Shown here in pieces: positions 28,032 through 46,706 of a DNA stretch of 64,000 nt. The number at the start of each line of letters is the position of its first letter. The stretch's first letter is position 1. Origin of the DNA: a virus; the IMG/VR virus record IMGVR_UViG_3300045988_127492, positions 87,921 to 151,920 of that record. One strand, given 5' to 3'. The notes under the pieces were generated by a model. It had not been told where the DNA came from. It saw nothing but the letters and a program-made list of their open reading frames with translations, and did no database searches. A program made the translations under genes and the position numbers.

Positions 28032-28032
28032 A

Positions 28033-29682: not shown

Positions 29683-29914
29683 GTCTATAATTCTCCTTTC
29701 TTTTCTCTATAGTATTCCTCAAATTGTGTTCTCCATATATAATAGAGTAATACTTCAAAGCTTCTAATAATGGAACCGGATTTCCATCTAAGAAATATCC
29801 ATAACCATTACCGCATTTGTGTTGAGGATTTATAAAACTTATTTGACAGATACTGCAGTACGGAGACTTACAACAGAATTCTCTTAACTTGAAATATATT
29901 TCATATCTATCCAT
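29666..29914 (-). CDS. Cys-rich small protein
   Basis: 82 aa with CCKSPYCSIC...HKCGNG. Confidence 0.5.
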   Translation of the reverse strand: MDRYEIYFKLREFCCKSPYCSICQISFINPQHKCGNGYGYFLDGNPVPLLEALKYYSIIYGEHNLRNTIEKRKENYRHERRV

Positions 29915-30196
29915 GTCTTCTCCTATAAATTAATGTGCTTAAAGGAAGTTCTAACATCTGGCTATTCCAACAATATCTTGCTTCTTTTATATGATAAAGC
30001 TTATTTTCATGTCCTTCAAATGCGCTATGTATCGTAACTTTTTGACCACATAGTTTTTTCATTTATTCATTGAAGCCACAGATGACAATTGGCATTCCAT
30101 CCTCTTCCTGCGGCCGATATTCTTCTATTAAACGATCAAACGGTTTTACTTTATAGTGACCACCAATTTTAAGAACTTTAAGTTTACTTAGATTCA
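29907..30196 (-). pseudogene. family-A small-protein paralog split by an in-frame TAA
   Basis: MNLSKLKVLKIGGHYKVKPFDRLIEEYRPQEEDGMPIVICGFNE-TAA-MKKLCGQKVTIHS...LPLSTLIYRRRHG. Aligns end to end with 31860-32144 (..NCGFVREMKKYCGQKLRIRAI..). Confidence 0.55.
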
Positions 30197-30516
30197 TTGT
30201 TTATCCTTTCATATAGTTTTCTAAACTTTACAAAATCTTCTTGTTTACCTCCATTGTCAGGATGAGCTTTAACCATTGCATAATGAACAGCTTCTTCTAT
30301 TTCTAAAGATGGTGTAATAATTTGGGGCTTTTTAAGTTTTATTGCAAGCCTTTTATTTTCTTCACATACACATATTATATTGAAGCGTAAAGAGTCATTC
30401 TGTCTTTTTAATTTATCTACTTCCATTTTCAAATTTATGTTTCCACTTATACAAACAAACAAAATTATTAATGTTGCTACCAATACAACACTCAACCCTA
30501 CTATTTGTACTAACAT
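30184..30516 (-). CDS. membrane-anchored J-domain-like protein
   Basis: From ATG 30516 (GAGGAG RBS): N-terminal TM helix, a coiled coil, then AVHYAMVKAHPDNGGKQEDFVKFRKLYERI, which carries the HPD tripeptide. Confidence 0.6.
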   Translation of the reverse strand: MLVQIVGLSVVLVATLIILFVCISGNINLKMEVDKLKRQNDSLRFNIICVCEENKRLAIKLKKPQIITPSLEIEEAVHYAMVKAHPDNGGKQEDFVKFRKLYERINNESK

Positions 30517-31574
30517 AAATCTTTCTCCTCTTTTGTACATAAGACGATTTCTCTTCTGATCGGACATCCACCTAAGCAATCACACTGACGGCTACAGCCT
30601 CTACAAGAATTCCTGAAATGACTTCTGAAATCATCGAATACATCTGAATCCCATGCTTCCTGAATAGTGTGTTCATTAAGATCAACTGCCCACTTAAGTT
30701 CCTGATTATCAAAGCTACATGGCAGCATTTTCATATCTGACGTAATGTAACCAGAAAATCTTGCTCCTTCACACGGTTCCAGAGTAGAATTTAAAATCTC
30801 TTCTGTAAAATTCAACAGTCCAGGCACAGAACATGAATCAAATCCAATCTGAAATTTATAATCATGTTTATCAATCAAAGAGAAAAATTCTTTGACTCTT
30901 TCATCATCAGGAGATAAGACATTTGCCTGAGTTCCTAAGCCTACTGGTTTATGTAGCAAGAAAATCACTGCATTAATACCATCTGGAAAATCTTCACGCT
31001 GCAAATGTTCAATAGCTTCGTCAATAGAATTTCGACCAAGAACATAATGAATATTAGTAGTAACACCAGCAGCTACTAACATGTTAATTGCTTTTTCAGT
31101 ATACTCACTTCTGTACCAAGAAATAGCTACAGCGCCACAATATCCTTTGCAAAGGGCTACGATTTCATCAGTAAATCCTAAACCTGAGCTTGTAAAATTT
31201 GGTACAATCCCTTGTGAACGACAGTATTTAAGAATTTCTTCAAAGTTCTCATGCTGATCCACATCGCCTCTACCTCCAAGAGCAAACTGGAATGTTTTTC
31301 CTTTACATTCATCTACTATTCTCTTGAAATTCTCAAGGGACATATTAGGCTCCTGTGTGTGTAATCCATTCTGATAACACTGAACTCCTGACTGAATACA
31401 CAAACCAGATGCCCCATGAACGCAATGTCCCATAACACCAATATCTAACAAAGCAGGAAAATTTCTCATAAATGGTTCCTTTCCTGTTGTCAAATCATCA
31501 GACCGGATATAGAACCCTGTCTTCGGATTAAATGTTTCTACAAAGTTATTTTTCTTGTCGTAATATCTATACAT
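30510..31574 (-). CDS. radical-SAM-fold enzyme with C-terminal SPASM domain and non-canonical N-terminal Cys spacing
   Basis: C-terminal PCSF...EAWDSDVFDDFRSHFRNSCRGCSRQCDCLGGCP (SPASM pattern). GGRGD in place of the GGE SAM motif. N-terminal Cys cluster is GHCVHGASGLCIQSGVQCY, not CxxxCxxC. Confidence 0.7.
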   Translation of the reverse strand: MYRYYDKKNNFVETFNPKTGFYIRSDDLTTGKEPFMRNFPALLDIGVMGHCVHGASGLCIQSGVQCYQNGLHTQEPNMSLENFKRIVDECKGKTFQFALGGRGDVDQHENFEEILKYCRSQGIVPNFTSSGLGFTDEIVALCKGYCGAVAISWYRSEYTEKAINMLVAAGVTTNIHYVLGRNSIDEAIEHLQREDFPDGINAVIFLLHKPVGLGTQANVLSPDDERVKEFFSLIDKHDYKFQIGFDSCSVPGLLNFTEEILNSTLEPCEGARFSGYITSDMKMLPCSFDNQELKWAVDLNEHTIQEAWDSDVFDDFRSHFRNSCRGCSRQCDCLGGCPIRREIVLCTKEEKDLC

Positions 31575-31872
31575 TTTTTCTTCTCTCCTTAATCATAATT
31601 TCTAATTTCCCTGTGAATGGAATAAGCATTACTTCATCCCAAGAGAAATAAAGCAATTCTTTATCCTCATCCTCGTATCCTGTAATGGTTTCCAAATCAT
31701 ATATGTTATTAACTGGATCATATATTGCTTTAATTTTGTATATTTTCCCACAAAAGCATCGCATATCTGGGATAAAACTTGATGGTGTATTTATAGTTCC
31801 ATCAGTGACACCATACTCCTTTGCCATCTGATCCCAAGACTTAACCCTTACTTTCTGTCCTACTTCATACAT
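31567..31872 (-). CDS. family-A small protein (KVGxxVxV...W..M..E(F/Y)G...CG...L-I-x-x-R-R tail)
   Basis: MYEVGQKVRVKSWDQMAKEYG...FCGKIYKIKAI...LEIMIKERRKNV. Confidence 0.65.
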   Translation of the reverse strand: MYEVGQKVRVKSWDQMAKEYGVTDGTINTPSSFIPDMRCFCGKIYKIKAIYDPVNNIYDLETITGYEDEDKELLYFSWDEVMLIPFTGKLEIMIKERRKNV

Positions 31873-32144
31873 TCTTGCCTCCTTGTGATTAACATTGATA
31901 AGTCTCCTTTTTCAAACATCTCACTTGTAAAAGTCCATGTATCTGCAGCATTCAAATAATAATAGATGTCATCAAATTTCTGTATAGCACGTATCCGCAA
32001 CTTTTGGCCACAATATTTTTTCATTTCTCTTACAAAACCGCAATTGTTACATCGAATAACACCATAATAATTAACACCAAATTCTTTAACCATATCATCC
32101 CATTGACGAATCTGAACTATGTCTCCTACTTTGTATTGCCTCAT
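31860..32144 (-). CDS. family-A small protein
   Basis: MRQYKVGDIVQIRQWDDMVKEFG...YCGQKLRIRAI...LSMLITRRQECMK. The AGGAGG codons encoding RR form the downstream gene's SD. Confidence 0.65.
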   Translation of the reverse strand: MRQYKVGDIVQIRQWDDMVKEFGVNYYGVIRCNNCGFVREMKKYCGQKLRIRAIQKFDDIYYYLNAADTWTFTSEMFEKGDLSMLITRRQECMK

Positions 32145-32403
32145 GCAAACCTCCTATTGGCATAATCATGTCTGTAGACCATGTGAACATTCTTCCATCT
32201 TCTTCAATATCGAAAAGATCTCTATCCCAGGGCAAAACATATTTGATTGTTACTATATTTCCACAATACTTACGCATATCTCTAACAAACGAAGCTTGAC
32301 ATGATATATATTCATTGTACGATCCAGCATGTCTTAATCCAAATTCTTTTTTCATACTTTCCCATGAACGTACTCTATACTTTTGTCCTACTTTTACTTT
32401 CAT
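32095..32403 (-). CDS. family-A small protein
   Basis: MKVKVGQKYRVRSWESMKKEFG...YCGNIVTIKYV...GGLHEAIQSRRH. Confidence 0.65.
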   Translation of the reverse strand: MKVKVGQKYRVRSWESMKKEFGLRHAGSYNEYISCQASFVRDMRKYCGNIVTIKYVLPWDRDLFDIEEDGRMFTWSTDMIMPIGGLHEAIQSRRHSSDSSMG

Positions 32404-32680
32404 TTCTTACCTCAATTAAATTCATCAACCCAGGCTTAATAAGCATATTTTCAGTAAATAAATATTGCTCTCCAGTTTCTATATTCTGCCCTTTATATAC
32501 ATGGTCTTTTTTATACCAATTATCCCTTGTAATTATGCGAATATTTTTCTCGCATAAAGGCTCCATTTCAAGTAAAAATACTATTGGTCCAAAATCTAAA
32601 CATCCAAGGAATTTGCCATTAGAAGCTTTTTTAAGTTCTTCCCATCTTTTTACACGGTATACTTCTCCTATTTTTATCAT
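32375..32680 (-). CDS. family-A small protein
   Basis: MIKIGEVYRVKRWEELKKAS...LCEKNIRIITR...PGLMNLIEVRNESK. Confidence 0.6.
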   Translation of the reverse strand: MIKIGEVYRVKRWEELKKASNGKFLGCLDFGPIVFLLEMEPLCEKNIRIITRDNWYKKDHVYKGQNIETGEQYLFTENMLIKPGLMNLIEVRNESKSRTKV

Positions 32681-32688
32681 AATTTCAC

Positions 32689-33765
32689 CTACTCAATAAG
32701 CAGTACATCAACTGCATTTCTAAATTTCTTTAACAACTCCGGATTAGCACAAACAATTTTCTTTCTGGTTACTCTACTTTTTCCATGCTTGTTAATATAT
32801 CTGGTTTCTAAATTATGCCAGTTGATAGAAGAATTCATTTCTTTCATCTTCTGATAAACTTTTCTATATGTAACCATGTTTCCATTGCTCTTATCTTTAT
32901 ATTTTTCTGCTAAAGGAATAATAATAGAATCAGTTGCATCCTGATTACAAACTGGTTTATACTTTTCGTAGAGATCTCCTAAAGCTGCACTAAAGATAGA
33001 TCTAAGAGTATCATTTGCATAGACAACATCATAAGTGCTAAACTTACTTACCGGATTATGTTTTGCTTTGTAATCTTTTACTTCCTGATCCCAACAGATA
33101 CCATAGTTTTTATTCATATATTTATATACTGCACCCATAACTGAGCCACGGTCTGAAAATCTATCACATGTAGTAAGTGCATCAATCATCTGGTACATAT
33201 CATTTTTCCATTTCTTACAGGGGTCTTCTACCTTTTTCACTGGTAATGCGACAGCAGGAGCTTTTGATTCTAACAATACAGAAACTACTTTACCCATATC
33301 CGCATAAACTCTATCTACTTTTTCCTGTAGAATTTCAATCTGTTTACTAAAATCAGGCATCTGTAACTGAATGATATTAGAATTATCAACTTTCTTTTCT
33401 AAGAAAGCTGCTGCCAGTACATCTTTTGCTTTGAGCTGGTATGATACAAGCTTTTCAGTAATTCCTGGGGAATCTTTTTTCATTGCTGGAGTGATTGAAA
33501 TTTTAGTTAGCCATAAAGGTAAGTAATCCAGTTGTAAACATAAAACATTTTGATTCCCACCATTTGTAAGGAGGGTAAAATTTTGTACCCCCTTTGAAAT
33601 TACTGAATCTGTTTGCATTTTTCTTCTTTCATATTTGATCCGGTTGTCGTCGAGTCCAATAGCCTCACACACCCAACGAGCACCGACCCAGACATTCCCT
33701 TCTGGATCCTGTGCCGCTCTAAGAATATCTCCCTGAAAATTTATTTCTTTAGCTACTAAATCCAT
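32689..33765 (-). CDS. phage antirepressor-like protein
   Basis: N-terminal INFQGDILRAAQDPEGNVWVGARWVCEAIGL resembles P22-type antirepressor N-terminal domains. 358 aa. Confidence 0.55.
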   Translation of the reverse strand: MDLVAKEINFQGDILRAAQDPEGNVWVGARWVCEAIGLDDNRIKYERRKMQTDSVISKGVQNFTLLTNGGNQNVLCLQLDYLPLWLTKISITPAMKKDSPGITEKLVSYQLKAKDVLAAAFLEKKVDNSNIIQLQMPDFSKQIEILQEKVDRVYADMGKVVSVLLESKAPAVALPVKKVEDPCKKWKNDMYQMIDALTTCDRFSDRGSVMGAVYKYMNKNYGICWDQEVKDYKAKHNPVSKFSTYDVVYANDTLRSIFSAALGDLYEKYKPVCNQDATDSIIIPLAEKYKDKSNGNMVTYRKVYQKMKEMNSSINWHNLETRYINKHGKSRVTRKKIVCANPELLKKFRNAVDVLLIE

Positions 33766-33767
33766 AA

Positions 33768-34310
33768 TTATTCTCCTTTTAACTTACTGATTGCTAATTT
33801 AATTGCTTCTTGTTCTTTTGGAGTTTTACAAACATTGTCATCGAGATAGCTTTGAAGCAACGCGACTGCTTTCTCGTCAGTCATTTCATTTAATTTATTT
33901 CTTACAATTTCCAGAAGCTTTTCTTCATTCCCTTTCCATTCATATGCTTTACATAAATTTCCGCTACAATGTACATTTGTGATTGATAAGGCACATGAAG
34001 AACAATTTTTATCGCCACACCCAGCAACATATTTAATCATGTCCTCAATAAACTCTCTGGCAGTCATTTCTTTCTCTTCTGACCGACTCTCATCAATAAT
34101 TTCGGAAGCTGTATATAAATTATGATGATAACCGGTGGCAACTGTTCCATCACTACGAAAACGAAGTACATCTGGAAATTTCTGTCCTTCAAAAACTCTT
34201 AATTCTCCTCCTGTAACCCATTTGTATCCCTGTTTCCTTGCAATTTCAAAGAACTTTTCACATTCTTCTCTTGTATTTACTCTTACATAAATATTTCTTA
34301 AATCAATCAT
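33768..34310 (-). CDS. family-C (MIDLR) domain protein with Cys-rich C-terminal extension
   Basis: MIDLRNIYVRVNTREECEKFFEIARKQGYKWVTGG...FPDVLRF matches 34727-35002 and 34995-35276. Confidence 0.6.
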   Translation of the reverse strand: MIDLRNIYVRVNTREECEKFFEIARKQGYKWVTGGELRVFEGQKFPDVLRFRSDGTVATGYHHNLYTASEIIDESRSEEKEMTAREFIEDMIKYVAGCGDKNCSSCALSITNVHCSGNLCKAYEWKGNEEKLLEIVRNKLNEMTDEKAVALLQSYLDDNVCKTPKEQEAIKLAISKLKGE

Positions 34311-34333
34311 ACTGTTTTATCTCCTCTTTATCA

Positions 34334-34708
34334 TTATTCAAGTACTGGTTTTAATGGACATGCTTCAGGAATTGTAGAGTGTTCTTTCTTTTTTAATATT
34401 TCGATATATTCATGTAATAAATTACAATAATATCCATTGATAAGTTTTGAAAATGGACATTCATTGCATGTATTCGGAGCGTTTATGATTATCATTTTCT
34501 TGTTTGTTTTCTCACCTTTTGATAATCGCACTAACAATCCCTGTTCTTCTAAGTCCTCATAATCGGCAAGTTTTTCAATAGCTTTTCCAACAGGACACGC
34601 CCAGCAACCTGAAAATGTATAATCATCACAGAAACATTTACAAGCTGTATCTCCGACTTCTGCCAAAAGAGTGTTTTCATCTTCTATTCTCTTTGTTAAT
34701 CTCTCCAT
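34334..34708 (-). CDS. Cys-rich hypothetical protein
   Basis: 124 aa with several Cys pairs (CKCFCDD, CWACPVG, CNECPF). Confidence 0.55.
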   Translation of the reverse strand: MERLTKRIEDENTLLAEVGDTACKCFCDDYTFSGCWACPVGKAIEKLADYEDLEEQGLLVRLSKGEKTNKKMIIINAPNTCNECPFSKLINGYYCNLLHEYIEILKKKEHSTIPEACPLKPVLE

Positions 34709-34726
34709 CTACTTCACCTCAAAAAT

Positions 34727-35002
34727 TTACATCTCCGAAACATCTTCCCTTTTTAAAATCAAACCTCTTAATCCAAGTATATCTTTACACTGATAATCTC
34801 GTGGATAATATTGATAAGCCGTAGCATTATAATGTACACTATATTCTTCATCAAAACGCAATCTAGTCGGGAACCGACAATAAACATGATCTAAAGAAAC
34901 ACTATTCGCCCAATAGAATCCTTGTCTCTTCGCTACTACAGCTATTGCCTTGTACTCAACTTCATTATTCACTAAAACAGTACATTTTCTTAAATCAATC
35001 AT
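34727..35002 (-). CDS. family-C small protein with L-I-L-x-R tail
   Basis: MIDLRKCTVLVNNEVEYKAIAVVAKRQGFYWAN...FPTRLRF...LRGLILKREDVSEM. Confidence 0.6.
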   Translation of the reverse strand: MIDLRKCTVLVNNEVEYKAIAVVAKRQGFYWANSVSLDHVYCRFPTRLRFDEEYSVHYNATAYQYYPRDYQCKDILGLRGLILKREDVSEM

Positions 35003-35276
35003 TAGTTCTTCCCTTTTGTCTAATTAAAATAAGTTTTCGTACACCTTTTATTAGAACCATACAGTTTGGATAGTCACGCGGCTGGCAACCTATCCATGCT
35101 CCATAATATGTACAATGATTTCTCTTAAATTCTAATCTAGTTGGGAATTCACACATAATATTATTTAAAGAACTTCCACTAGCCCATTCAAAGCCTTGCT
35201 TTATAGCCATTTTAGTTATAGCTCTGTACTCTTTTTCATTGTTAATCTTTACAGTACAATCTCTAAGGTCAATCAT
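34995..35276 (-). CDS. family-C small protein with L-I-L-x-R tail
   Basis: MIDLRDCTVKINNEKEYRAITKMAIKQGFEWAS...FPTRLEF...VRKLILIRQKGRTND (from the internal ATG). Confidence 0.6.
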   Translation of the reverse strand: MIDLRDCTVKINNEKEYRAITKMAIKQGFEWASGSSLNNIMCEFPTRLEFKRNHCTYYGAWIGCQPRDYPNCMVLIKGVRKLILIRQKGRTND

Positions 35277-35413
35277 TTCCATCCCCATCCTTTCAAAGTA
35301 AGCATCTTTTTCAGGTTCTTACATTTAATGAAACTTGGTGTATATTCTTTTGTCTCTTCACAATATCCAAACCATTTACCTGATACATCCTTTTGAATAA
35401 TATATACTTTCAT
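35273..35413 (-). CDS. 46-aa small protein (below the ORF-track cutoff)
   Basis: MKVYIIQKDVSGKWFGYCEETKEYTPSFIKCKNLKKMLTLKGWGWK. ATGA overlaps at both ends fill an otherwise empty 120-nt gap. Confidence 0.5.
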   Translation of the reverse strand: MKVYIIQKDVSGKWFGYCEETKEYTPSFIKCKNLKKMLTLKGWGWK

Positions 35414-35703
35414 TGCTGATTCTCCTTCCTAAGTTTTATAATATTGTTTAATCCTGATGGAGAACGTAGCATAGCGTTGTTAAAGTACCATTCGATTCCA
35501 TGTCCATCTATTTTTATGAAGTACTCATCTGCTGTACCATCCGTTATAGCAACAATCTTACCTAATTTTCCACGATATTTTGCCATAGAAGTATTAAAAA
35601 GCAATGTTTCATATCCACAAATTGGTTTATGTTCATATACATAAAGATTATTGATAATCAAATCCTCTCTAACAATTACCTTGTCTCCAATCTTATATCT
35701 CAT
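35410..35703 (-). CDS. family-A small protein
   Basis: MRYKIGDKVIVRED...MAKYRGKLGKIVAI...PSGLNNIIKLRKENQQ. Confidence 0.65.
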   Translation of the reverse strand: MRYKIGDKVIVREDLIINNLYVYEHKPICGYETLLFNTSMAKYRGKLGKIVAITDGTADEYFIKIDGHGIEWYFNNAMLRSPSGLNNIIKLRKENQQ

Positions 35704-35923
35704 AATTTTCCTTTCTGGCTTCTATCAGTCTACTTAGACTTCCTACCGGAATAAGTGATGATCTATACCAGCATCCATCTGGAACCCCAATTAGATTATA
35801 ACCATTAAGACTCTTTCTACCAATCCTATAAACTTTTCCGAGATATTTTACCCCTATCTCACGAACTGCTAAGTTACGTTTTATACGAACCCAGTCTCCT
35901 ACTTTATATTCTCTCTTCTGCAT
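35693..35923 (-). CDS. family-A-like small protein (short form)
   Basis: MQKREYKVGDWVRIKRN...VGSLSRLIEARKENYEI. Confidence 0.6.
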   Translation of the reverse strand: MQKREYKVGDWVRIKRNLAVREIGVKYLGKVYRIGRKSLNGYNLIGVPDGCWYRSSLIPVGSLSRLIEARKENYEI

Positions 35924-36183
35924 ATCAAACCTCCTAAGCTATTAGCTGGCAATAACATGGCATCGTTAAATACCCACATGTTTTGTTCTACTTCTAAAGA
36001 TAATTCATAAAACTCTCCTTCATTATCAATTGAAGCTTTTGTTATTTTATATTCTCTCCCGCAAAATTTTTCCATTTGATGAGCAAACCATAATTTTCTA
36101 CTTGATGAATTTGAGTAGGGATATTCATTTCCTCCAATTAAATCTGTTCGAACTCTAACTCTATCCCCAACTTTATATCTCAT
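35899..36183 (-). CDS. family-A small protein
   Basis: MRYKVGDRVRVRTD...MEKFCGREYKITKA...NSLGGLICRRENIK. Confidence 0.65.
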   Translation of the reverse strand: MRYKVGDRVRVRTDLIGGNEYPYSNSSSRKLWFAHQMEKFCGREYKITKASIDNEGEFYELSLEVEQNMWVFNDAMLLPANSLGGLICRRENIK

Positions 36184-36428
36184 GTTCGTTTTCTCCTCCT
36201 ATCAATCAGTACAGTTAATCCTTTGTAAGGGATAAATTCGTCTGCTGGAAATACATAACCTCTAAGTTCTTCAAACATATAAGCTTCAAACGTATAAGCT
36301 TCTATCCCAGAAGTTAAACTTTTAATTAATCTTATAGTATATATATTTCCTAACAACCGTTCTCTATGGATACCCCATATCTTAAGAGGTGCATTAGTTT
36401 TAAGGATTACTTTGTCTCCTGGCCTCAT
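36180..36428 (-). CDS. family-A-like small protein
   Basis: MRPGDKVILKTN...YKGLTVLIDRRRKRT. Confidence 0.6.
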   Translation of the reverse strand: MRPGDKVILKTNAPLKIWGIHRERLLGNIYTIRLIKSLTSGIEAYTFEAYMFEELRGYVFPADEFIPYKGLTVLIDRRRKRT

Positions 36429-36642
36429 ATTGCCTCCTTTTGTGAATTGCAGAAGATAATGTGTCTTTTATAGGGATCAACATATCTATATCAAATATAT
36501 ATTTTGATTCTTCCACTAAACAGGAACCATAGTCATATATACTTTGTATGGTCAAAATTCTTCTTTGTACGTCTTTCACAGGAATCCCAAATACAGTCCC
36601 AGATAATCTAGGATCAACTATCACTTTATCTCCAACCTTCAT
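36400..36642 (-). CDS. family-A-like small protein
   Basis: MKVGDKVIVDPRL...KDTLSSAIHKRRQYE from the internal ATG 36642. Confidence 0.6.
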   Translation of the reverse strand: MKVGDKVIVDPRLSGTVFGIPVKDVQRRILTIQSIYDYGSCLVEESKYIFDIDMLIPIKDTLSSAIHKRRQYEARRQSNP

Positions 36643-36643
36643 G

Positions 36644-36799
36644 TTATTTCTCCAGTATAAAATCAAGTACTTCTACAATACTCATACCTGATATATCTAA
36701 TAGTTTCATTTCCTTTGAAGCATACTGCACAATACAAATCCCGTCCTTGATTGTACAGCTTGTTATGCCTCTCTTTTTTAATAACTTGTTCAGCTCCAT
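36644..36799 (-). CDS. 51-aa small protein (below the ORF-track cutoff)
   Basis: MELNKLLKKRGITSCTIKDGICIVQYASKEMKLLDISGMSIVEVLDFILEK, preceded by AAGGAG. Its stop lies 1 nt before the 36642 start. Confidence 0.5.
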   Translation of the reverse strand: MELNKLLKKRGITSCTIKDGICIVQYASKEMKLLDISGMSIVEVLDFILEK

Positions 36800-36810
36800 G
36801 ATGACTCCTT

Positions 36811-36850
36811 AAAATTCTCTTGGGGAGTCGAACCCCAAGAGAACTGTTTT
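36811..36850. terminator. bidirectional Rho-independent terminator (11-bp stem TTCTCTTGGGG/CCCCAAGAGAA)
   Basis: Perfect 11-bp stem with a 7-nt loop and T-tracts on both strands. Lies between 36865-37389 and the small-ORF array. Confidence 0.8.
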
Positions 36851-36864
36851 TATTTTATTGTTTA

Positions 36865-37389: not shown

Positions 37390-37521
37390 ATTCTCCTTTT
37401 AATCCTTGTTTTCTTATTTTTTCTTATTTCTCTTTTTAAATCCTATATTCAGTTGTAATTTATATGAAAACCTCTTAGTGGGCTAGAGGTCAATCATATA
37501 CTTTGGCATATCCATTCCTCC

Positions 37522-38508
37522 TTACGCTGCTGATTTAATATCTATAATGTCACAAACAGAATAATACTGATAATGACTTAAAACGATACCAATTGCTTCC
37601 ATTTCATTTACTGCAAGAACTTCACAACATATTTCTTCTTCCTTGTATCCTAGAAGATATACATGAAAGTATTTCTTAGCTGCTTTTTCATTTGAAAACA
37701 TAAGGACACCAGAATCTGTATAAGCTGTTGTGTAATCTGTGCTAATAGGTGATGTCTCTTCTTCATCATCCCAGTCTTTCCACCAGTTTCCATATTTACC
37801 ATAGCCATAAGCAGCTTCGATGTACTCAAAAGGCTCTTCACATGGTAAAGCAAGAATCTTTTTCGCTTCTTCAATCGTTGATAAAAGAGCTTCTACATTG
37901 ATGGTTTCTGTTATTGTGTGCTCATTAAAGTATCCAGATGAAAGATTCACTGCCGCTACTTGCAATACAGGAGCAATTATTGAAATATCAGACACTGAAC
38001 CCCATTCTGTTTTGAAATAACCAGTTGATTCAATAAACTCTTTAAAATCTGGGTTATCACAAGAGTAAAATACACAATCGTTTGTTCCTCTACGGTCAAT
38101 TTCAATTATGTAATTTATATTATTGTTTACTACATAATCACTCTTTGCAAACTTCCCAGATCCTACACAACCAATCTCTTCATCTTCTGTAAATAATACA
38201 GAACAATGATAGTCCTTAATGATCTGTAAGATAGCGTAGATTCCACACCGGTCATCTCCCCCAATTCCTTGAGGGGAAGACATAATTGCTCCGTTATATT
38301 TGATTTTCTGGACACATTCTTTATGTACTGTGTCCATATGAGCAACTAAGAGTACTGGGAAAGTTCCTTCTGCATAAAGGAAACCATCTTCTGACTTAGG
38401 CTCATAACCTGCTGCTTCCAATTTAGCTTCCAGATGTCTCTTGAGAGTCATCTGTTTCATTTTTAAGATTTCTTCAAATTCTACAATTCTGTATTTATTT
38501 TCATTCAT
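37522..38508 (-). CDS. M28/M42-like metallopeptidase-fold protein with C-terminal extension
   Basis: VLLVAHMDTVH, GIGGDDRCG and FTEDEEIGCVGS resemble the metal-ligand motifs of co-catalytic Zn aminopeptidases. Confidence 0.55.
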   Translation of the reverse strand: MNENKYRIVEFEEILKMKQMTLKRHLEAKLEAAGYEPKSEDGFLYAEGTFPVLLVAHMDTVHKECVQKIKYNGAIMSSPQGIGGDDRCGIYAILQIIKDYHCSVLFTEDEEIGCVGSGKFAKSDYVVNNNINYIIEIDRRGTNDCVFYSCDNPDFKEFIESTGYFKTEWGSVSDISIIAPVLQVAAVNLSSGYFNEHTITETINVEALLSTIEEAKKILALPCEEPFEYIEAAYGYGKYGNWWKDWDDEEETSPISTDYTTAYTDSGVLMFSNEKAAKKYFHVYLLGYKEEEICCEVLAVNEMEAIGIVLSHYQYYSVCDIIDIKSAA

Positions 38509-40021
38509 CTCCGGTCTCCTTTTCTACACAATCTGGACAAAGTCCTTTATCATCGTCTCCGATTACATAGAGACTGCCGCATTCTTTGCATTCTTTAACT
38601 TTTTCGTTAAAGAAATAGTCACCCTCACGTTCAACATATGTATAATTTTCCTCTAAACACTGACTACACACATTTTCATTAGTCGACTCTACATGAATAA
38701 CATCTTCATCTCTTCGTAATCTTCCACAACAATCACATGTTGTGAATTCATTATCTTTACAATCATCACAGATATCCATATCTAATTCACTATAATAATG
38801 AATATAATCGTTAGGGATTCTTTCATCACAGCAATCACAGAAAGTAGAACAATCACAACAGTACCATTGGTCGTCAATAAGATACATATCATCTTCATCA
38901 TAACGACAGCCGCATCTATGACATCTTCGTGTTCCATCGGATCCGTCATAGCAATCTTCACAAAGAAGTGTTGATTCATTATCATGCCAATCGCCGCATT
39001 TTACACAATAGATATCATGTCCTACAGTCATTTTTCTATTGTCAACTCTTCCCTTGGGAATCATTTTGACGATTCTACTTACTGAACACTCATTCTGATA
39101 GCTATAATCTCTATAATGAGTTCCCTCAGAATGAATAACTCCGCAGCAAGCTTCTGTTCCACCTTTCTTTCTCCAAAGATTAGGTGCTACTAAGCAGTCA
39201 GCAATAATCTTCTGAAGCTGTGCTCTGATTGGTGTATACAGTGAGTTCTGACCATCATTACACTGAGGATACAGTCTTCCCTGTATGAGGATTCCATCCT
39301 TATAATGAAACATCTGACGAATGATCTTAGGCTCAAACTCTAAGTCATTTCCGTCATATTCTTTGTCTACCTGATAATAAACCATTGTAGTTCCATCAAG
39401 CAGATAACTCATGGTACCGGAACAATGGCATCCTGAATATCCATTAGGATTATTCTTATCAAGTGTGTGGCAAGAAGACCAGCTGTTTCCGTTGCTTGAT
39501 AATAAATAATCAACTGGATTAACTGACAGAATCGTATGTCTGACCTGATCCAGTGGATTGATTGCATCAGAATACTTTGCGTATTCTTTTTCATAACCAC
39601 TTCTTTTGTCTATTCCTAAGAGCTTACAAATCTTATTTACTGCTCTTGAAGTTTTCTGTCCTGCTGCGATTCCTTTGATTTCTGGATAGGACTTTTTAAT
39701 TCTTTCTGCCATATCCTCAGTTAAAAGCTGTTCTTTATAATATTTCAAACAATCAAGGGCATCTGTATAACCGCTCACATCTATCACTCTATCAAGAAAC
39801 CGATAAATTTTATTTTCATCAACTTTTCCTTTGACATTCTGATCAAATGCTACATAACATTTCTCTTCATTCCAATTCGGATGATGTCTTAACAACTCAA
39901 TCAGAGGAGCTTTGCCCTCTGCCCAGATGTCAATAATTTTATTAATTGCACTGGTACCCCAAGGGATATCATACATATTAAGAACTTTAATCATACCCTG
40001 TTTCATTGTTTCCTTATTCAT
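38501..40021 (-). CDS. large hypothetical protein with multi-CxxC C-terminal region
   Basis: 506 aa. The last ~190 aa hold more than 10 CxxC pairs. Nested alternative-frame ORFs were ignored. Confidence 0.6.
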   Translation of the reverse strand: MNKETMKQGMIKVLNMYDIPWGTSAINKIIDIWAEGKAPLIELLRHHPNWNEEKCYVAFDQNVKGKVDENKIYRFLDRVIDVSGYTDALDCLKYYKEQLLTEDMAERIKKSYPEIKGIAAGQKTSRAVNKICKLLGIDKRSGYEKEYAKYSDAINPLDQVRHTILSVNPVDYLLSSNGNSWSSCHTLDKNNPNGYSGCHCSGTMSYLLDGTTMVYYQVDKEYDGNDLEFEPKIIRQMFHYKDGILIQGRLYPQCNDGQNSLYTPIRAQLQKIIADCLVAPNLWRKKGGTEACCGVIHSEGTHYRDYSYQNECSVSRIVKMIPKGRVDNRKMTVGHDIYCVKCGDWHDNESTLLCEDCYDGSDGTRRCHRCGCRYDEDDMYLIDDQWYCCDCSTFCDCCDERIPNDYIHYYSELDMDICDDCKDNEFTTCDCCGRLRRDEDVIHVESTNENVCSQCLEENYTYVEREGDYFFNEKVKECKECGSLYVIGDDDKGLCPDCVEKETGDE

Positions 40022-40677
40022 GCTGCAAAACCTCCTAATATTGTTTCGTATAACTCTTCCGGAACCTGTTCTTTTCCTAAGTACTGCTCTGAAATTTCCT
40101 TTGCTTTAACTACTGCCGAAGTTCCTTTATCTTTGATTCTTTCATAGAAAGCTTCAACAGTATTCATGACTTTGGATATTGTCTCATACTCCGTGTACAA
40201 TTCCTTATCATCTGCCTGGACCTGTTCAAACACTTCCTGTACTCCATAAGCTACGAAACATTCTGGACAATAATCGTTCACCAGAGGACCGGAAATAATC
40301 TTTCCGCAGTGCTTACAAATGCTCAACTGGTAATCTCGCTCATCCAGATCCTTGTAGTCATCATTTTCAAACTTGAAAACTTCATACTGGTCAAAGATAT
40401 ATGCTGCATCGTATCCCTTGGCGAGTTCCTCAAATTTAATCAGAACTTCTACAGAATCTTCATTGTCCTGCGTAAATGGTTTTATTTTGTGGTTTAAGGG
40501 TTTCGTTTTTAACTGATCCTCATCAATATAGAGATATTTTGAGTCAAAGTTCTCAGTGATGTCTTCTCCTTGGACGTATTTCTTGAAGATAAAACCAAGA
40601 ATAATATTAATATTTTCTGTTTCTGCTTCTGATGAAGTGATTTTGTTATCTTTATATAAACTAATAAGTGTTGCCAT
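40018..40677 (-). CDS. hypothetical protein with central zinc ribbon
   Basis: CKHCGKIISGPLVNDYCPEC. 219 aa. Preceded by a consensus promoter. Confidence 0.6.
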   Translation of the reverse strand: MATLISLYKDNKITSSEAETENINIILGFIFKKYVQGEDITENFDSKYLYIDEDQLKTKPLNHKIKPFTQDNEDSVEVLIKFEELAKGYDAAYIFDQYEVFKFENDDYKDLDERDYQLSICKHCGKIISGPLVNDYCPECFVAYGVQEVFEQVQADDKELYTEYETISKVMNTVEAFYERIKDKGTSAVVKAKEISEQYLGKEQVPEELYETILGGFAA

Positions 40678-40706
40678 GTCTGTTCTCCTTTCTTGACTGT
40701 AACTGC

Positions 40707-40735
40707 ATTATAAACCATTTTGTAAAACCTGTCAA
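40707..40735 (-). promoter_or_regulatory. consensus sigma-A promoter TTGACA-N17-TATAAT
   Basis: Minus strand reads TTGACA ggttttacaaaatggtt TATAAT, ~30 nt upstream of the 40677 start. Confidence 0.8.
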
Positions 40736-40764
40736 TAGTTTAAAATAAGTTTTTACAAAATAGT

Positions 40765-41607
40765 TTAAGAAATTTTTCTTCCTCTTTCATTAAACATTTT
40801 TGCTTCTCCGATAGATACCAGATAATCCTGCATGTAGAGAGCTAAACTCATACCTGGCCTCTCTGGATAGGCGGCTAATCCTTTAGCTCTGAGTGTACTT
40901 GGCTCAGTTTCTCTCATAATAGGAACAAGTTTAAACAAACCAACTGAACCATAGTAGGTATAAATAGTATATAAGGCATGTAATACATATTTGCTTAAAC
41001 CATTAATTTCCATTGTATAGCCAGCTCTATAACAAGTACCAACAATTGCTTCTAATCCAATATATCCTGAAGATCTAGAAATATTGTAGGCTAAATCATA
41101 AGAGCCAATTGCACCTGCACTCTGGTTTCCTTTGTAGTTACTAATTGTTAAGTTGTATTCATCAATTACTTTCTGTATAGCGGTACATACAGGGTCATTT
41201 AATACTAATCCTGCTTTGTGCTGCTGCATTTTACTTACTTTCTCTGTACAATTTGACTGACGTACAAAAATTGAAGCCTCATATTTTCTTCTCTCTTCCG
41301 GATCAGTTGGTGCTGTAGTGATAACCACACACTCAAGTGCATCTAAAATTCCTTCTGATGCACAACATCTTCCATTGCCGTCTACAATAGAGAACGTTCC
41401 TTCTTCCGGATGCGGCACTACTAACAGCGGATCCATAAGAGTGTGATCAAATTCTTTATGCAGTTTTGCAATTTTCTTTGATCTACCTGCTTCTAACCGC
41501 TGATATGCTGGATCAACGGATAACAGCTCTCTTGGGATTACCGCTAAGTGCTTGCTTCCTGATACTAAAAGGTTGTTCATAATTGTATTAAATAATACGT
41601 TGTTCAT
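40765..41607 (-). CDS. ParB/Srx-like N-terminal-domain protein
   Basis: LLSVDPAYQR...IVDGNGRCCA (ParB-like nuclease/NTPase fold motifs). Start moved to ATG 41607. Confidence 0.6.
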   Translation of the reverse strand: MNNVLFNTIMNNLLVSGSKHLAVIPRELLSVDPAYQRLEAGRSKKIAKLHKEFDHTLMDPLLVVPHPEEGTFSIVDGNGRCCASEGILDALECVVITTAPTDPEERRKYEASIFVRQSNCTEKVSKMQQHKAGLVLNDPVCTAIQKVIDEYNLTISNYKGNQSAGAIGSYDLAYNISRSSGYIGLEAIVGTCYRAGYTMEINGLSKYVLHALYTIYTYYGSVGLFKLVPIMRETEPSTLRAKGLAAYPERPGMSLALYMQDYLVSIGEAKMFNERGRKIS

Positions 41608-41681
41608 TGCTTCTTTTCCTCTTTTCTTAAATTTATATAATAAAAAAGAGCTGTTTCCACAGCTCTGATTTACTTTCTTGT

Positions 41682-41915
41682 TTACTGATTGCATTCTACT
41701 AAATTAGTAAGATACTCAATACCATGCCCACAAAATGCTGTCAACACTTCATCGAGTACATTGTACTGTTCTTCTGTTTCACAGAGTTCTAATGCCTGGA
41801 GAACTCCGTAACCTCTCTCATACTCACTGCTGTTCTGCAGTTCCTTAGTGAGCACGTCTCCTAAGATTTCTGTTGCGTAATCAACAGAGAATAATCTTTC
41901 TTTTGCTGTTTTCAT
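41682..41915 (-). CDS. hypothetical small protein
   Basis: Start ATG 41915, preceded by AAGGAGG and overlapping the upstream stop (ATGA). Confidence 0.55.
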   Translation of the reverse strand: MKTAKERLFSVDYATEILGDVLTKELQNSSEYERGYGVLQALELCETEEQYNVLDEVLTAFCGHGIEYLTNLVECNQ

Positions 41916-42235
41916 CTTGAAAACCTCCTTGATATAATTAATTCTTTGAGATTCTTTGGTTCTCTTGTCCAAATTAAATCTTTGTCTTTGTAGTCCATTT
42001 TGTATGTAAGACTATCCACGGTAGACTTGTATAATGCTATTATTGAATATACAGGATTACCTTCAGAGTTCAAATTTTCTTTGTAACTATTGCTTGTCAT
42101 AAATCCACTAGAATTAATAAAGCAAAAGTCTTGACTACCATAGTTTTTAGTCTCACAATTGGTAAGAACAAGATATTTCCCACATGGCATAACAGCTGTC
42201 ATGCCAGACCGGAGTTTCTTTCTTAAATCAACCAT
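41912..42235 (-). CDS. small protein with L-I-x-x-R-R tail
   Basis: Ends KNLKELIISRRFSR. The AGG AGG (RR) codons are the SD of 41682-41915. Confidence 0.55.
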   Translation of the reverse strand: MVDLRKKLRSGMTAVMPCGKYLVLTNCETKNYGSQDFCFINSSGFMTSNSYKENLNSEGNPVYSIIALYKSTVDSLTYKMDYKDKDLIWTREPKNLKELIISRRFSR

Positions 42236-42431
42236 TTTGTCTCCTCTCTATCAGTCCACGTAGGCGTAGAATAGAAATTAAATCTTGATCGTTAGTCCAG
42301 TGTAATTGGTTATTTTTACGATAATGGATCAAATAAGGTGAATCAAGTAATGGATCTTTATAAATATATACTACTTTTCCAATACCATAAAGTCGATGAC
42401 AGACTATATCATCTATTTTTATCTTGTGCAC
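42228..42431 (-). CDS. family-B small protein (Tudor-like H-x-x-(F/Y)-G-x-G-K-V motif plus L-I-x-x-R-R tail)
   Basis: GTG start. IVCHRLYGIGKVVYIY ... LRGLIERRQNG. Confidence 0.65.
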   Translation of the reverse strand: MHKIKIDDIVCHRLYGIGKVVYIYKDPLLDSPYLIHYRKNNQLHWTNDQDLISILRLRGLIERRQNG

Positions 42432-42651
42432 TTCTTCTCCTTTCTATTAGACCGTACAACGATATTGAAATAAAAGTAAGTGTACTTTTAAAACACCAGT
42501 AATAATGACAGTCTGAACCTCTCCCAAATCCATCATGTAGTATCTTATTTTCTTTATAAAAATAAATCAAATAAAGCGCAGGACTAATCCTAATATCTAC
42601 AATTTTTCCAATACCAAATTCTTCTCGCCATACAATATCACCTATTTGCAT
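42409..42651 (-). CDS. family-B small protein
   Basis: MQIGDIVWREEFGIGKIVDIR ... LYGLIERRRSAQDKNR. GAAAGGAGA (ERR) serves as the SD for the next gene's GTG. Confidence 0.65.
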   Translation of the reverse strand: MQIGDIVWREEFGIGKIVDIRISPALYLIYFYKENKILHDGFGRGSDCHYYWCFKSTLTFISISLYGLIERRRSAQDKNR

Positions 42652-42872
42652 TGCTGTCTCCTCTTTATAATACGTCCTAAGGTATTTTTATTTATTAATA
42701 TATGTCCAACTTCATGAGGCCAAGCCCAATATATGTGTCTACTTTTGTCAAAGATGAATGTCTCGTTTGCCTTGTAGAAGTATATTTCATAAAAAGAACC
42801 GTCGTACCCTATAACTTTTCCAACTCCACATTGGGGATGACATACTATTCCGCCTATCCATCTTTGTCTCAT
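42642..42872 (-). CDS. family-B small protein
   Basis: IVCHPQCGVGKVIGYDG ... TLGRIIKRRQQCK. Confidence 0.65.
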   Translation of the reverse strand: MRQRWIGGIVCHPQCGVGKVIGYDGSFYEIYFYKANETFIFDKSRHIYWAWPHEVGHILINKNTLGRIIKRRQQCK

Positions 42873-43126
42873 ATCTTTGCCTTTCTGATTTCAATCAAAG
42901 CTTTTAATGAATTATCATCACAGAAAAAACACTGTAATTCTTTTTTGCTGAACCACCATCCATGGTTATTTTTACAAGATCCAGGTATAGCGGCTCCGTC
43001 ATGTAGATCTTGATGTGCCTTGAAAAAGTAAACTAAATAATTAAGATCATCAAAGTGTTCTTCATACTTAATAATTTTACCTATACCATAAATCGGATGG
43101 TGTATTAATTTATTGAAATCTCCCAT
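42869..43126 (-). CDS. family-B small protein
   Basis: LIHHPIYGIGKIIKYEE ... HDGAAIPGSCKNNHGWWFS ... LKALIEIRKAKI. Confidence 0.65.
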   Translation of the reverse strand: MGDFNKLIHHPIYGIGKIIKYEEHFDDLNYLVYFFKAHQDLHDGAAIPGSCKNNHGWWFSKKELQCFFCDDNSLKALIEIRKAKI

Positions 43127-43410
43127 TCTTTATCACTTTCCTTTCCATGTGGTATATAATCTACATATATACATATCTTTTTTGATTCGCGTCTCTTTTC
43201 TATAAGCAACCCTAAAGGTGAAGTTTTCATATCTTTGATTTGACATGGACTAAACCACCAACCATGATTATCTTCACATGCACCAGGCTCTATTGCACCA
43301 TCATGCAAATCTTCATCTTCTTTGAAAAAATAAACAAGCTCACTTCCAGGGCGTACTCGTATTACTTTCCCTATTCCAAAATGTGGGTGTCTGACATAGT
43401 TTCCTATCAT
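43105..43410 (-). CDS. family-B small protein
   Basis: YVRHPHFGIGKVIRVRPG ... HDGAIEPGACEDNHGWWFS ... LGLLIEKRRESKK plus a 24-aa extra tail. Confidence 0.65.
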   Translation of the reverse strand: MIGNYVRHPHFGIGKVIRVRPGSELVYFFKEDEDLHDGAIEPGACEDNHGWWFSPCQIKDMKTSPLGLLIEKRRESKKICIYVDYIPHGKESDKEWEISIN

Positions 43411-43643
43411 TTGCCTTGCCTCTTTTCTATAAAATGTCTCAATGGTTTCTTATGCAGAAACTTAATCTCTTGTTTCGTATAAATCATACAATTAGGCATG
43501 TGTTTCCCATCGCCATCCAGTACATGAAAAGTCGCTTCATTTTGCTTGCAAACTTGTACAGCATAGGGGTAAATACATTTATAAAGATAACATTTGAATT
43601 TTCCCAACCCAAATTTAGGTTCCCATACATATATGTTCTGCAT
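43407..43643 (-). CDS. family-B small protein
   Basis: YVWEPKFGLGKFKCY ... PLRHFIEKRQGK. Confidence 0.6.
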   Translation of the reverse strand: MQNIYVWEPKFGLGKFKCYLYKCIYPYAVQVCKQNEATFHVLDGDGKHMPNCMIYTKQEIKFLHKKPLRHFIEKRQGK

Positions 43644-43645
43644 AA

Positions 43646-43888
43646 TTATCCCTTCTTTCTCTTGGTTATCAAATCAATTAATGGTCTTTTGCGTAAATAT
43701 ACGAATTCACCTTTTCTATAGGCCTGCGCATTAACTACTGTTCTTCCTTTATATTCGCCAGTATAAAGGAAATAACCATTTTTATAATGTTCTACCACAT
43801 ACCTGCGACTTTGATAAGCTATCGGATCATAGAAACTTAACTTGCCGAATCCATCAAGAGTTTTTACATAGATGTGTCTCATTTCCAT
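43646..43888 (-). CDS. family-B-like small protein
   Basis: YVKTLDGFGKLSFYD ... PLIDLITKRKKG. Confidence 0.6.
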   Translation of the reverse strand: MEMRHIYVKTLDGFGKLSFYDPIAYQSRRYVVEHYKNGYFLYTGEYKGRTVVNAQAYRKGEFVYLRKRPLIDLITKRKKG

Positions 43889-44067
43889 TCTCCTTTTCTG
43901 CGCAAGATTGCTTCATAAAGAGTATTGTAAACTACGAATGGCTGCAATACCTCTTCTGAAAATTCAAGGACACTATCGTAATGTAAAAAATCCACAAGAC
44001 ATTTACCTTCTTTTATTTTTTCCACTGCGCATCCTGTTCTTCCTACTTTTGTGTATATTATTTTCAT
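43879..44067 (-). CDS. family-B-like small protein (most divergent, first of the array)
   Basis: From ATG 44067 (GGGAGG RBS): MKIIYTKVGRTGCAVEKI ... LYEAILRRKGEWK. Confidence 0.55.
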   Translation of the reverse strand: MKIIYTKVGRTGCAVEKIKEGKCLVDFLHYDSVLEFSEEVLQPFVVYNTLYEAILRRKGEWK

Positions 44068-44109
44068 GTTTACCTCCCGAATGAATAGTAGCAAACATAC
44101 GTTCGGATG

Positions 44110-44334
44110 TCAAGTATCTATATAACAGAAACTTCCGGTTCCTGTATCCACAGTGCAGCAAGCATGTTCATATTTCATGATCAAACGATTGAATTTCTCT
44201 TCTGACATTTTTGTTGTGACCTTAAAAGGATGTGCCCAAGGTGAATCCACTGGCATTCTATTAGGAAGTAAATATACGGGCGTTCCCTTGGAAAGTTCTT
44301 TCTGCGCTTCTCTTCTAGTTACTTTCTTTAACAT
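44110..44334 (-). CDS. hypothetical small protein
   Basis: Internal ATG 44334 used (MLKKVTRREAQKELSKG...). The track's 5' extension lacks an RBS. Confidence 0.5.
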   Translation of the reverse strand: MLKKVTRREAQKELSKGTPVYLLPNRMPVDSPWAHPFKVTTKMSEEKFNRLIMKYEHACCTVDTGTGSFCYIDT

Positions 44335-46669: not shown

Positions 46670-46706
46670 CTTTGGTGACCACTCCTTTCTATCTTGTTTG
46701 GTTATT

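Follow-up and report, generated by a model that had tools for sequence, protein, structure and literature searches.

A Short C-Terminal Motif on Unrelated Small Proteins of a Gut Phage Clade: A Candidate Docking Helix

Introduction

Why do small phage proteins that otherwise have little in common end in the same ten residues? The question arises from a 64,000-nt stretch of viral DNA (hereafter the window; positions 87,921–151,920 of IMG/VR record IMGVR_UViG_3300045988_127492), part of a large uncultured phage whose genes from 1 to ~50 kb lie on the minus strand. An initial annotation, made from the sequence alone, had pointed out that about 21 small open reading frames (ORFs) from three N-terminal families, which we call A, B, and C, share a C-terminal tail built on Leu, Ile, and Arg residues, the codons of which may also provide the Shine–Dalgarno (SD) sequence of the next gene. 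Is the tail a by-product of this signal, or a peptide maintained for its own sake? The data presented below argue for the latter.

Results

A Common Tail Far above Chance Expectation

The shared tail is real: every tail string of the initial annotation is present at the minus-strand ORFs concerned, and all 21 ORFs (table 1) carry the motif 0–27 residues from the stop codon. Its consensus, [G/P/S/T]-L1-x-x-[L/A/M]4-I5-x-x-R8-[R/K/Q/N]9, covers about ten residues; we refer to its fourth position as h4. Of the 96 distinct tails, 87 have Leu at L1, 93 have Ile at I5, and 94 have Arg at R8. The residue preceding L1 is Gly, Pro, Ser, or Thr in most tails, and acidic residues are common at x6. In the alignments of families A and B, the invariant columns are the start Met, one or two core residues, and the Leu, Ile, and Arg of the tail. 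The tail data all come from one clade of gut phages, sampled as 50 loci on contigs of up to 250–280 kb; 309 of the 1080 unique proteins of these loci bear the tail. Between phages, the copy number varies from 2 to 8 for family B, 5 to 10 for family A, and 2 to 4 for family C.

Genes were called simply as the longest ORFs, and three entries of the original list had to be redrawn. ORF 29907–30062 does end in a tail but is only the C-terminal half of a family A gene split by a TAA codon. ORF 41912–42235, listed outside the families, has the tail and proves to be a divergent member of family C: a profile search with family C recovers it, and ~45 divergent orthologue clusters have a nearly constant tail. 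The tail of B8 likewise stands, but its gene most likely starts at ATG 44067, preceded by a sigma-A-like promoter and a GGGAGG SD, and not at 44094.

The strict pattern L..[LIMFA]I..R[RKQEN] has 21 matches in the 96 minus-strand ORFs of the window, 20 of them ≤12 residues from the C-terminus. In residue-shuffled ORFs, 0.32 matches are expected in total, of which 0.03 near C-termini (never more than 1 in any of 2000 shuffles). When shuffling is restricted to the 25 C-terminal residues of each of the 25 small ORFs, a procedure that retains the SD-derived Arg content, 0.12 matches are expected (maximum 3 in 5000 shuffles); by either procedure, the 20 observed lie far above expectation. A 12-column position-specific scoring matrix run over the six frames found all its strong matches at gene ends, between 27.8 and 45.1 kb on the minus strand, and added candidates at 29693–29728, 27819–27854, and 45058–45093. 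With these additions, ~21 to 24 proteins with at least four unrelated domains carry the tail. No tail match was found in 50-kb stretches (158 ORFs in all) of Enterocloster phage CB473P3 and phage c-st, two AT-rich phages of Clostridia type with many small coupled ORFs. Because of paralogy, the 21 copies are not independent; what needs explaining is hence the presence of one tail on several different families.

Three further ORFs were rejected as members. The C-terminus of 46496–46717 (LARAILRRN) is an ordinary HicA C-terminus that matches by chance; the 51-residue ORF 36644–36799 and the 46-residue ORF 35273–35413 lack the Arg of position 8.

Selection Acts on the Amino Acids

Mean pairwise substitution fractions were calculated for 22 orthologue groups comprising 232 distinct sequences from the 50 loci. 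The nonsynonymous fraction is 0.054 at L1, 0.064 at h4, 0.030 at I5, and 0.006 at R8, versus 0.223 in the domain bodies; at the x positions of the tail it is 0.15–0.27. The corresponding synonymous fractions are 0.232, 0.236, 0.102, and 0.107, versus 0.104 in the domain bodies. Amino acid changes are therefore 4- to 35-fold depleted at the four conserved positions with synonymous change at or above background, and a smaller orthologue set agrees. As nonsynonymous change is depleted while synonymous change stays at background level, the constraint on the tail acts on amino acids.

Codon use, determined for 61 distinct tail DNAs from the window and 15 related loci, agrees with this picture. All six Leu codons are used at L1 and all three Ile codons at I5, and h4 has no conserved base (TTA, GCA, ATG, TTT, ATT, and ACT for Leu, Ala, Met, Phe, Ile, and Thr, respectively). 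R8 differs: its codon is AGA or AGG (AGR) in 61 of 61 tails versus 74% AGR genome-wide, and AGG makes up 44% of R8 codons versus 13% of Arg codons genome-wide. These sequence comparisons indicate that selection on the tail is at the level of amino acids, the choice of AGR adding a nucleotide-level bias at the Arg. They also bear out the earlier contention that an SD cannot explain the L-x-x-L-I part: amino acid changes are strongly depleted at L1, h4, and I5, synonymous change is at or above background there as well as at R8, and the distance to the next start varies, as described below.

The Arg Codons Often Double as the Shine–Dalgarno Sequence of the Next Gene

The Arg-Arg pair had been read as partly a footprint of translational coupling, and in this the initial annotation was right. 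Together with the exclusive use of AGR, two counts support it: in 13 of the 21 junctions, the R8–R9 codons overlap the best SD core found for the gene that follows, and an SD contained in the preceding gene is in the Arg-coding frame in 8 of 16 tail genes versus 1 of 18 other window genes, 17 of which use Lys-Glu or Gly-Gly frames. The three examples quoted at the time are correct, namely AGG AGG CAA before ATG 31872, AGG AGA AGA A before GTG 42431 (at the end of B2), and AGG AGG TTT TCA AG before ATG 41915. Most tails end ≤20 nt from the next start.

In the other eight junctions, the SD does not overlap R8–R9. It lies in codons x2–x3 in A7 (within the L-G-G codons, the next gene starting 7 nt upstream of R8), in codons x6–x7 in A4 (GAGG in the E-V codons), before L1 in A3, and elsewhere past the tail or past the stop codon. 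Relative to R8, the next start of the window genes varies between 17 nt upstream and 68 nt downstream, and one relative has it >100 nt downstream. In C1, R8 is 42 nt before the next start, and the next gene has its own SD past the C1 stop codon; genes of the C1 type are followed by a gap of 18–88 nt and then a separate SD, and the tail is still kept in the orthologues, where the intergenic gap measures 43–88 nt. The tail of B5 is located 26–27 residues before the stop codon and 68 nt before the next start, an internal position conserved in orthologues (P0125, P0132, and P0142). The tail is thus kept without a close downstream gene, in C1-type genes before intergenic gaps and in B5-type genes far from the stop. 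Taken together, the junctions indicate that the coupling footprint is secondary to the peptide, the Arg codons having probably been co-opted as the next SD in ~60% of junctions because the tail lies at the 3′ end of tightly packed genes.

Two junctions show additional features. The A3 tail (E-A-I-Q-S-R-R-H-S) is dual-coded, in another frame, with the N-terminus M-R-Q-Y-K-V-G-D-I of the next family A gene; the two genes overlap by 50 nt (window 32095–32154), and MRQYKVGD is conserved. The B5 lineage has a conserved 26–27-residue extension past the tail (ESKKICIYVDYIPHGKESDKEWEISIN, window 43126–43189), and a 13-codon ORF in another frame, perhaps left over from a gene start that was lost, begins just past the RR codons of B5.

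A Modular Peptide on Different Domains

The initial annotation took the tail for a modular peptide carried by N-terminal families that are unrelated. This is supported, in that A and B have no detectable sequence homology outside the tail and their relatives outside the clade are tail-less, with the qualification that A and B are both predicted to be small beta-barrels. Profile–profile comparisons of A with B, A with C, and B with C align only the tail region. We modeled A7 and B4 with AlphaFold2 as single chains. The A7 model is an SH3-like barrel of five to six strands with a mean predicted local distance difference test score (pLDDT) of 84, and ~90 in the domain; PDB neighbors of the family are PetP, NdhO, YorP (2heq, prophage SPbeta), and SH3 and chromo barrels, with E values of 0.03–0.4. 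The body of family A is thus modeled as an SH3-like small barrel; its weak matches to PF18346 and phrog_7488 both end before the tail. The B4 model is also a beta-barrel, with the C-terminal Tudor domains of PcrA/UvrD as best PDB matches, followed by Mfd and CarD; the top Foldseek matches (5dma and 7egs) have a probability of 1.00 but weak E values of 0.08–0.09 and TM scores of 0.39–0.62. The PcrA Tudor domain is an interaction module for RNA polymerase, by way of the beta subunit (PMC5397179), and by this predicted resemblance the family B proteins are candidate RNA polymerase binders. Family B, in the window (42228–44067) as in related loci (L009–L049), consists of tandem paralogues. Families B and C have no match in Pfam or PHROGs, and a sequence search of PDB with family C returned nothing meaningful. 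The latter family, the “MIDLR” proteins including 41912–42235, differs from A and B, as does the Cys-rich protein 29666–29914.

All three domains also exist without the tail. In distant homologues of the A domain, the similarity stops behind the last strand (W-x-[DE]-x-M-L-x-P), and unrelated sequence without a tail follows. When the family B profile was searched exhaustively, ~70 non-clade proteins, either single-domain proteins of 70–80 residues or arrays of 2–5 repeats, match only profile positions 2–65 and lack the tail. The C domain is found in a tail-less 180-residue protein of the window itself (33768–34310). Among cultured phages, the A domain has a marginal, tail-less match in a Bacillus phage, and the other matches of A and B are chance matches to portal proteins. 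The existence of tail-less homologues suggests that the tail is an add-on acquired within the clade by several pre-existing domains, and these profile comparisons indicate that it is modular and clade-restricted.

Fusions, truncations, and one nonsense split were found among the tail genes, with frequent junction deletions and copy-number changes, as fits accessory genes with a fast turnover. We considered frameshift-linked polyproteins with the tail as linker and rejected them: in-frame fusions such as P0121 and P0123 each occur once and probably reflect indels or errors of assembly.

A Predicted Helix with One Conserved Face

In the AlphaFold2 models, the tail is a helix, formed by residues 83–90 in A7 (pLDDT 43–54) and residues 74–84 in B4 (~63), after a drop from ~90 in the domains. 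On a helical wheel, L1 (0 degrees), h4 (300 degrees), I5 (40 degrees), and R8 (340 degrees) form one face with a span of ~100 degrees, and the variable x2, x3, x6, and x7 occupy the opposite face. The mean hydrophobic moment is 0.33 and the mean net charge +2.2. The tail is therefore predicted to be a short helix, linked by a few residues to its own domain and poorly anchored to it. The Arg inside the hydrophobic stripe, the almost exclusive use of Ile and Leu over other hydrophobic residues, and the modest moment fit a stereospecific protein groove better than lipid.

Discussion

A Docking Helix and Its Alternatives

From the recurrence of the motif, the selection on its amino acids, and its modularity, we infer docking to a partner. 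We favor, with a confidence only slightly better than even, a clade-specific docking helix for one putative partner shared by all tail proteins. The helix would dock into a groove of this partner, and the 21–24 probably early accessory proteins would thereby be tethered to the same hub, each N-terminal domain supplying its own specificity; the use of Arg codons as SD of the next gene would be a co-option. We rank the host transcription machinery first among possible partners, because the predicted fold of family B comes closest to that of an RNA polymerase-binding Tudor domain, and a Clp-type unfoldase or protease next, because the phage carries a ClpP homologue (60351–60968, with a score below family cut-offs). 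Packaging, DnaK (through the HPD-motif membrane protein 30184–30579), self-association, and the radical SAM enzyme 30510–31574 are less likely.

Several observations weigh against a docking helix. The tail nearly always adjoins a downstream start, so that it may have some coupling-related role, and there is a nucleotide-level bias at R8, where only AGR is used. Nine residues are short for a stand-alone docking helix. Since the tail is found in one clade only, the independent events are few, roughly 4–6 families and ~22 orthologue groups. Finally, A and B share a small-barrel architecture and may have a very old common origin, tail included.

The alternatives that dispense with a selected peptide fare worst. 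A pure SD or translational-coupling footprint, in which the tail would be the by-product of a purine-rich SD and of AU-rich sequence upstream of it in AT-rich overlapping genes, agrees with the position of the SD in 13 junctions, with the AGR codons and the excess of AGG at R8, and with the short distance from most tails to the next start, but we find it scarcely tenable. The amino acids at L1, h4, and I5 are conserved with free synonymous change, and h4 lacks any conserved nucleotide; R8 is kept in the eight junctions with an SD elsewhere; other overlapping genes of the window use other SD frames and have no tail; and neither the two AT-rich control phages nor the 25-residue shuffle (0.12 vs. 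20) reproduces it. As sole explanation, the footprint is refuted by the asymmetry between synonymous and nonsynonymous change. A DNA or RNA repeat that happens to be translated (a recombination linker, a processing site, or the binding site of a regulator) is hardly credible either: the motif does recur at gene boundaries, where fusions, deletions, and copy-number changes are frequent, but it is conserved with a three-base periodicity that leaves third positions free, the families have no run of identical nucleotides in common, and the existence of 61 distinct DNA versions contradicts it. A nascent peptide acting in cis, which from the exit tunnel would slow termination and promote re-initiation at the next start, would account both for selection on the peptide and for its constant place at gene junctions; moreover, the last gene of the B operon (41682–41915), which is followed by a terminator-like hairpin, has no tail. 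We nevertheless hold it to be improbable. Known arrest peptides require a fixed register, whereas here the distance from tail to stop codon is 0–27 residues and that from R8 to the next start −17 to >+100 nt; C1-type tails are kept before intergenic gaps, and many tightly coupled genes of the window are tail-less.

Other readings accept the peptide and give it a different use. Were it an integral helix capping its own domain, for folding or stability in each family, the predicted helix and the moderate rather than very low pLDDT in family B (~63) would be expected; however, one and the same motif is attached to four or more different domains, confidence falls sharply at the tail in family A, the linker contains Gly, Pro, or Ser, and homologous A and B domains of other origin than the clade do without it and are complete, which makes such a cap doubtful at best. 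An amphipathic helix for membrane targeting, of the MinD or FtsA type, is suggested by the C-terminal position, the hydrophobic and basic residues, and the net charge. It appears unlikely for a segment of ~9–10 residues with a moment of 0.33, an invariant Arg in the hydrophobic face, and frequent acidic residues at x6, in which the Ile of I5 (93/96) and the Leu of L1 (87/96) are almost never replaced by other hydrophobic residues. The radical SAM/SPASM enzyme raises the prospect that the tail is its follower sequence and the tail proteins its substrates: the enzyme is encoded inside the family A array and has weak similarity to peptide maturases, and loci for ribosomally synthesized and post-translationally modified peptides (RiPPs) typically hold multi-copy substrates with a common recognition sequence. 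This is very improbable, as the conserved residues are Leu, Leu/Ala/Met, Ile, and Arg, none of them a Cys, Ser, Thr, or aromatic residue that could be modified, the domains are folded, in proteins of 70–105 residues, the B operon is a separate unit 11 kb away, and the domain matches of the enzyme report no RiPP recognition element (RRE) or PqqD-like domain.

An extension of the docking helix, which we rate as a long shot though well ahead of these alternatives, is a phage adaptor system in which the variable domains of two dozen small early proteins would grip different host targets and the common helix would plug into one effector hub. This hub could be, for instance, a Clp-type unfoldase or protease that acts together with the ClpP of the phage, or RNA polymerase of the host. 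In a variant of this reading, the tail would be a C-terminal packaging signal loading a varied arsenal into the capsid. Such a system, if true, would use a motif to retarget a host machine, or would be the bacterial equivalent of the short motifs by which eukaryotic viruses hijack hubs. Mimicry of the ParB N-terminal peptide (LGRGLxALI), a clamp-binding motif, a Tat motif, and the ClpX C-motif 2 were considered and rejected, their spacing being different.

Comparison with Known Systems

When the literature was searched in full text for phage proteins with a C-terminal motif in common, nothing relevant emerged beyond the capsid targeting sequence (CTS) of T4, a conserved short peptide on diverse, fast-evolving internal proteins (PMC3012670); the tail would be a modular targeting or docking peptide with a motif for which this search returned no prior description. 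Like the CTS, which gives its carriers one common destination, packaging, the tail is a short common peptide on otherwise unrelated small phage proteins. The CTS is N-terminal and acts via the scaffolding core, and the prohead protease cleaves it off. The tail, in contrast, is C-terminal and of different sequence, and its genes lie behind sigma-A-like promoters in an early-looking region.

In predicted architecture, the AlphaFold2 models with their barrel, low-confidence linker, and C-terminal helix resemble the adaptor SspB, a small beta-barrel with a flexible linker and a hydrophobic-plus-basic C-terminal XB peptide that tethers it to the hub ClpX. The sequences differ, XB, which binds the N-domain of ClpX, being L-R-V-V-K at the extreme C-terminus, whereas 0–27 variable residues follow the tail motif. 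Encapsulin cargo-loading peptides are also C-terminal, combine Leu/Ile with a terminal Arg/Lys, and bring unrelated cargo to one shell protein. Their consensus L-x-[IV]-G-S-L-[KR] is unlike the tail, however: the Gly-Ser core is absent from the 96 tails, the hydrophobic residues are spaced 1, 4, 5, and no shell or capsid gene is found near the tail genes. The LxxLL motif and the CoRNR box (L/I-x-x-I/V-I) of eukaryotes are helical motifs with a hydrophobic i, i+3, i+4 stripe, a flanking basic residue, and free positions on the solvent side; here the analogy is one of design, many unrelated proteins binding one groove, and not of homology. The hub-binding C-terminal peptide of FtsZ (I-P-T-F-L-R-N-R in B. 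subtilis) has an i, i+3, i+4 pattern followed by Arg/Lys; unlike it, the tail has no conserved Pro and Phe, and its basic residues are in another register.

Short linear motifs that link unrelated proteins to one hub are central in eukaryotic viruses and hardly described in phages, where the classic case, the T4 CTS, is N-terminal and serves packaging. The present system offers a handle of 9–10 residues, ~96 natural versions of it, and 21–24 client proteins per genome, so that a single peptide pull-down could identify the hub. Its identity would give a purpose to two large families of “hypothetical” early proteins in widespread gut phages of 100–280 kb. The tail also illustrates cleanly how the same codons can come to serve a protein motif and a ribosome-binding site for the gene that follows.

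Genomic Context of the Tail Genes

Table 1. Tail-bearing genes and associated signals in the window
Feature	Position	Strand	Tail	Tail position	Remarks
Sigma-A-type promoter-like site	44085–44113	−			TTGACA, 17 nt, TG-extended TACTAT; before B operon; consensus match only
B8	43879–44067	−	NTLYEAILRRKG	43891–43926	First gene of family B operon
B7	43646–43888	−	RPLIDLITKRKK	43652–43687	Tail kept in orthologues
B6	43407–43643	−	KPLRHFIEKRQG	43413–43448	
B5	43105–43410	−	SPLGLLIEKRRE	43186–43221	
B4	42869–43126	−	NSLKALIEIRKA	42878–42913	
B3	42642–42872	−	NTLGRIIKRRQQ	42651–42686	
B2	42409–42651	−	ISLYGLIERRRS	42430–42465	AGG AGA AGA is SD for GTG 42431
B1	42228–42431	−	LRLRGLIERRQN	42234–42269	
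Divergent family C member	41912–42235	−	KNLKELIISRRF	41921–41956	Starts MVDLR
Intrinsic-terminator-like hairpin and T-run	41647–41666	−			Closes B operon, after tail-less last gene 41682–41915
A9	36400–36642	−	DTLSSAIHKRRQ	36430–36465	
A8	36180–36428	−	KGLTVLIDRRRK	36189–36224	
A7	35899–36183	−	NSLGGLICRREN	35908–35943	
A6	35693–35923	−	GSLSRLIEARKE	35708–35743	
A5	35410–35703	−	SGLNNIIKLRKE	35422–35457	
C2	34995–35288	−	KGVRKLILIRQK	35013–35048	Probable start 35276
C1	34727–35002	−	LGLRGLILKRED	34742–34777	
A4	32375–32680	−	PGLMNLIEVRNE	32399–32434	
A3	32095–32403	−	GGLHEAIQSRRH	32119–32154	
A2	31860–32144	−	GDLSMLITRRQE	31872–31907	Tail kept in >40 orthologue clusters
A1	31567–31872	−	GKLEIMIKERRK	31576–31611	Directly upstream of radical SAM/SPASM gene
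A0	29907–30197	−	LPLSTLIYRRRH	29913–29948	Split by in-frame TAA 30063–30065
Cys-rich 82-residue protein	29666–29914	−	HNLRNTIEKRKE	29693–29728	Fourth N-terminal family; NLRNTIEKRK
Small protein, variant tail	27807–28094	−	NSLKLLILNKRE	27819–27854	Lys at position 8; SLKLLILNKR
DUF5688-domain protein, doubtful member	45052–45546	−	VSLSESIARRKS	45058–45093	Weak tail-like; SLSESIARRK

The B unit, made up of eight B genes, a C-like gene, and one tail-less gene, runs from the promoter-like site (44113–44085) to the terminator-like hairpin (41666–41647). Such consensus matches to promoters suggest an early expression driven by the host polymerase, and from sequence the tail proteins are probably early-expressed. 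A perfect sigma-70 consensus (TTGACA-17-TATAAT; consensus match only) is present on the minus strand at 40735–40707, between a gene for a ParB-like protein of 309 residues and the conserved genes for proteins of 219 and 506 residues that it precedes. In A0, the TAA yields ORFs of 44 and 51 residues, the ATG of the second directly following the stop; relatives of this gene are intact, with 96–97 residues, and read N-S-D-M-K-K-L where the window has N-E-stop-M-K-K-L. Among the added candidates, the C-terminus of the DUF5688-domain protein differs in some orthologues.

The radical SAM/SPASM protein 30510–31574 inside the family A array is conserved in all related loci and has weak similarity to mycofactocin, PqqE, sactipeptide, and tungsten-cofactor maturases. 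The protein encoded by 30184–30579 has an N-terminal hydrophobic helix, a coiled coil, and a C-terminal J-domain-like HPD motif (KAHPDNGG); against Pfam, it gave no DnaJ match at E ≤ 0.01. The HicA-like toxin gene 46496–46717 is followed by a HicB-like antitoxin gene (46019–46486), and Pfam HicA/HicB matches occupy the same place in relatives. Between two operons, at 36815–36843, an 11-bp hairpin followed by a T-run has a loop and upper stem like a tRNA T-arm (GGGGTTCGACTCCCC); ARAGORN predicts no tRNA at this position.

A near-identity DNA search of cultured phages gave no match to the window, and no relative was found when bacterial and archaeal genomes were scanned for prophage copies. One protein of the window shares 38–41% identity with proteins of Clostridium phage c-st and of phages of Enterocloster. 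A group I intron-type endonuclease gene (61508–62281) adjoins the ClpP homologue and a PhoH-like gene (59326–60324). The window further contains eight tRNA genes (Leu, Met ×2, Gln; Glu, Asp, Ser, Tyr) in two clusters, at 8595–10867 and 62618–63237.

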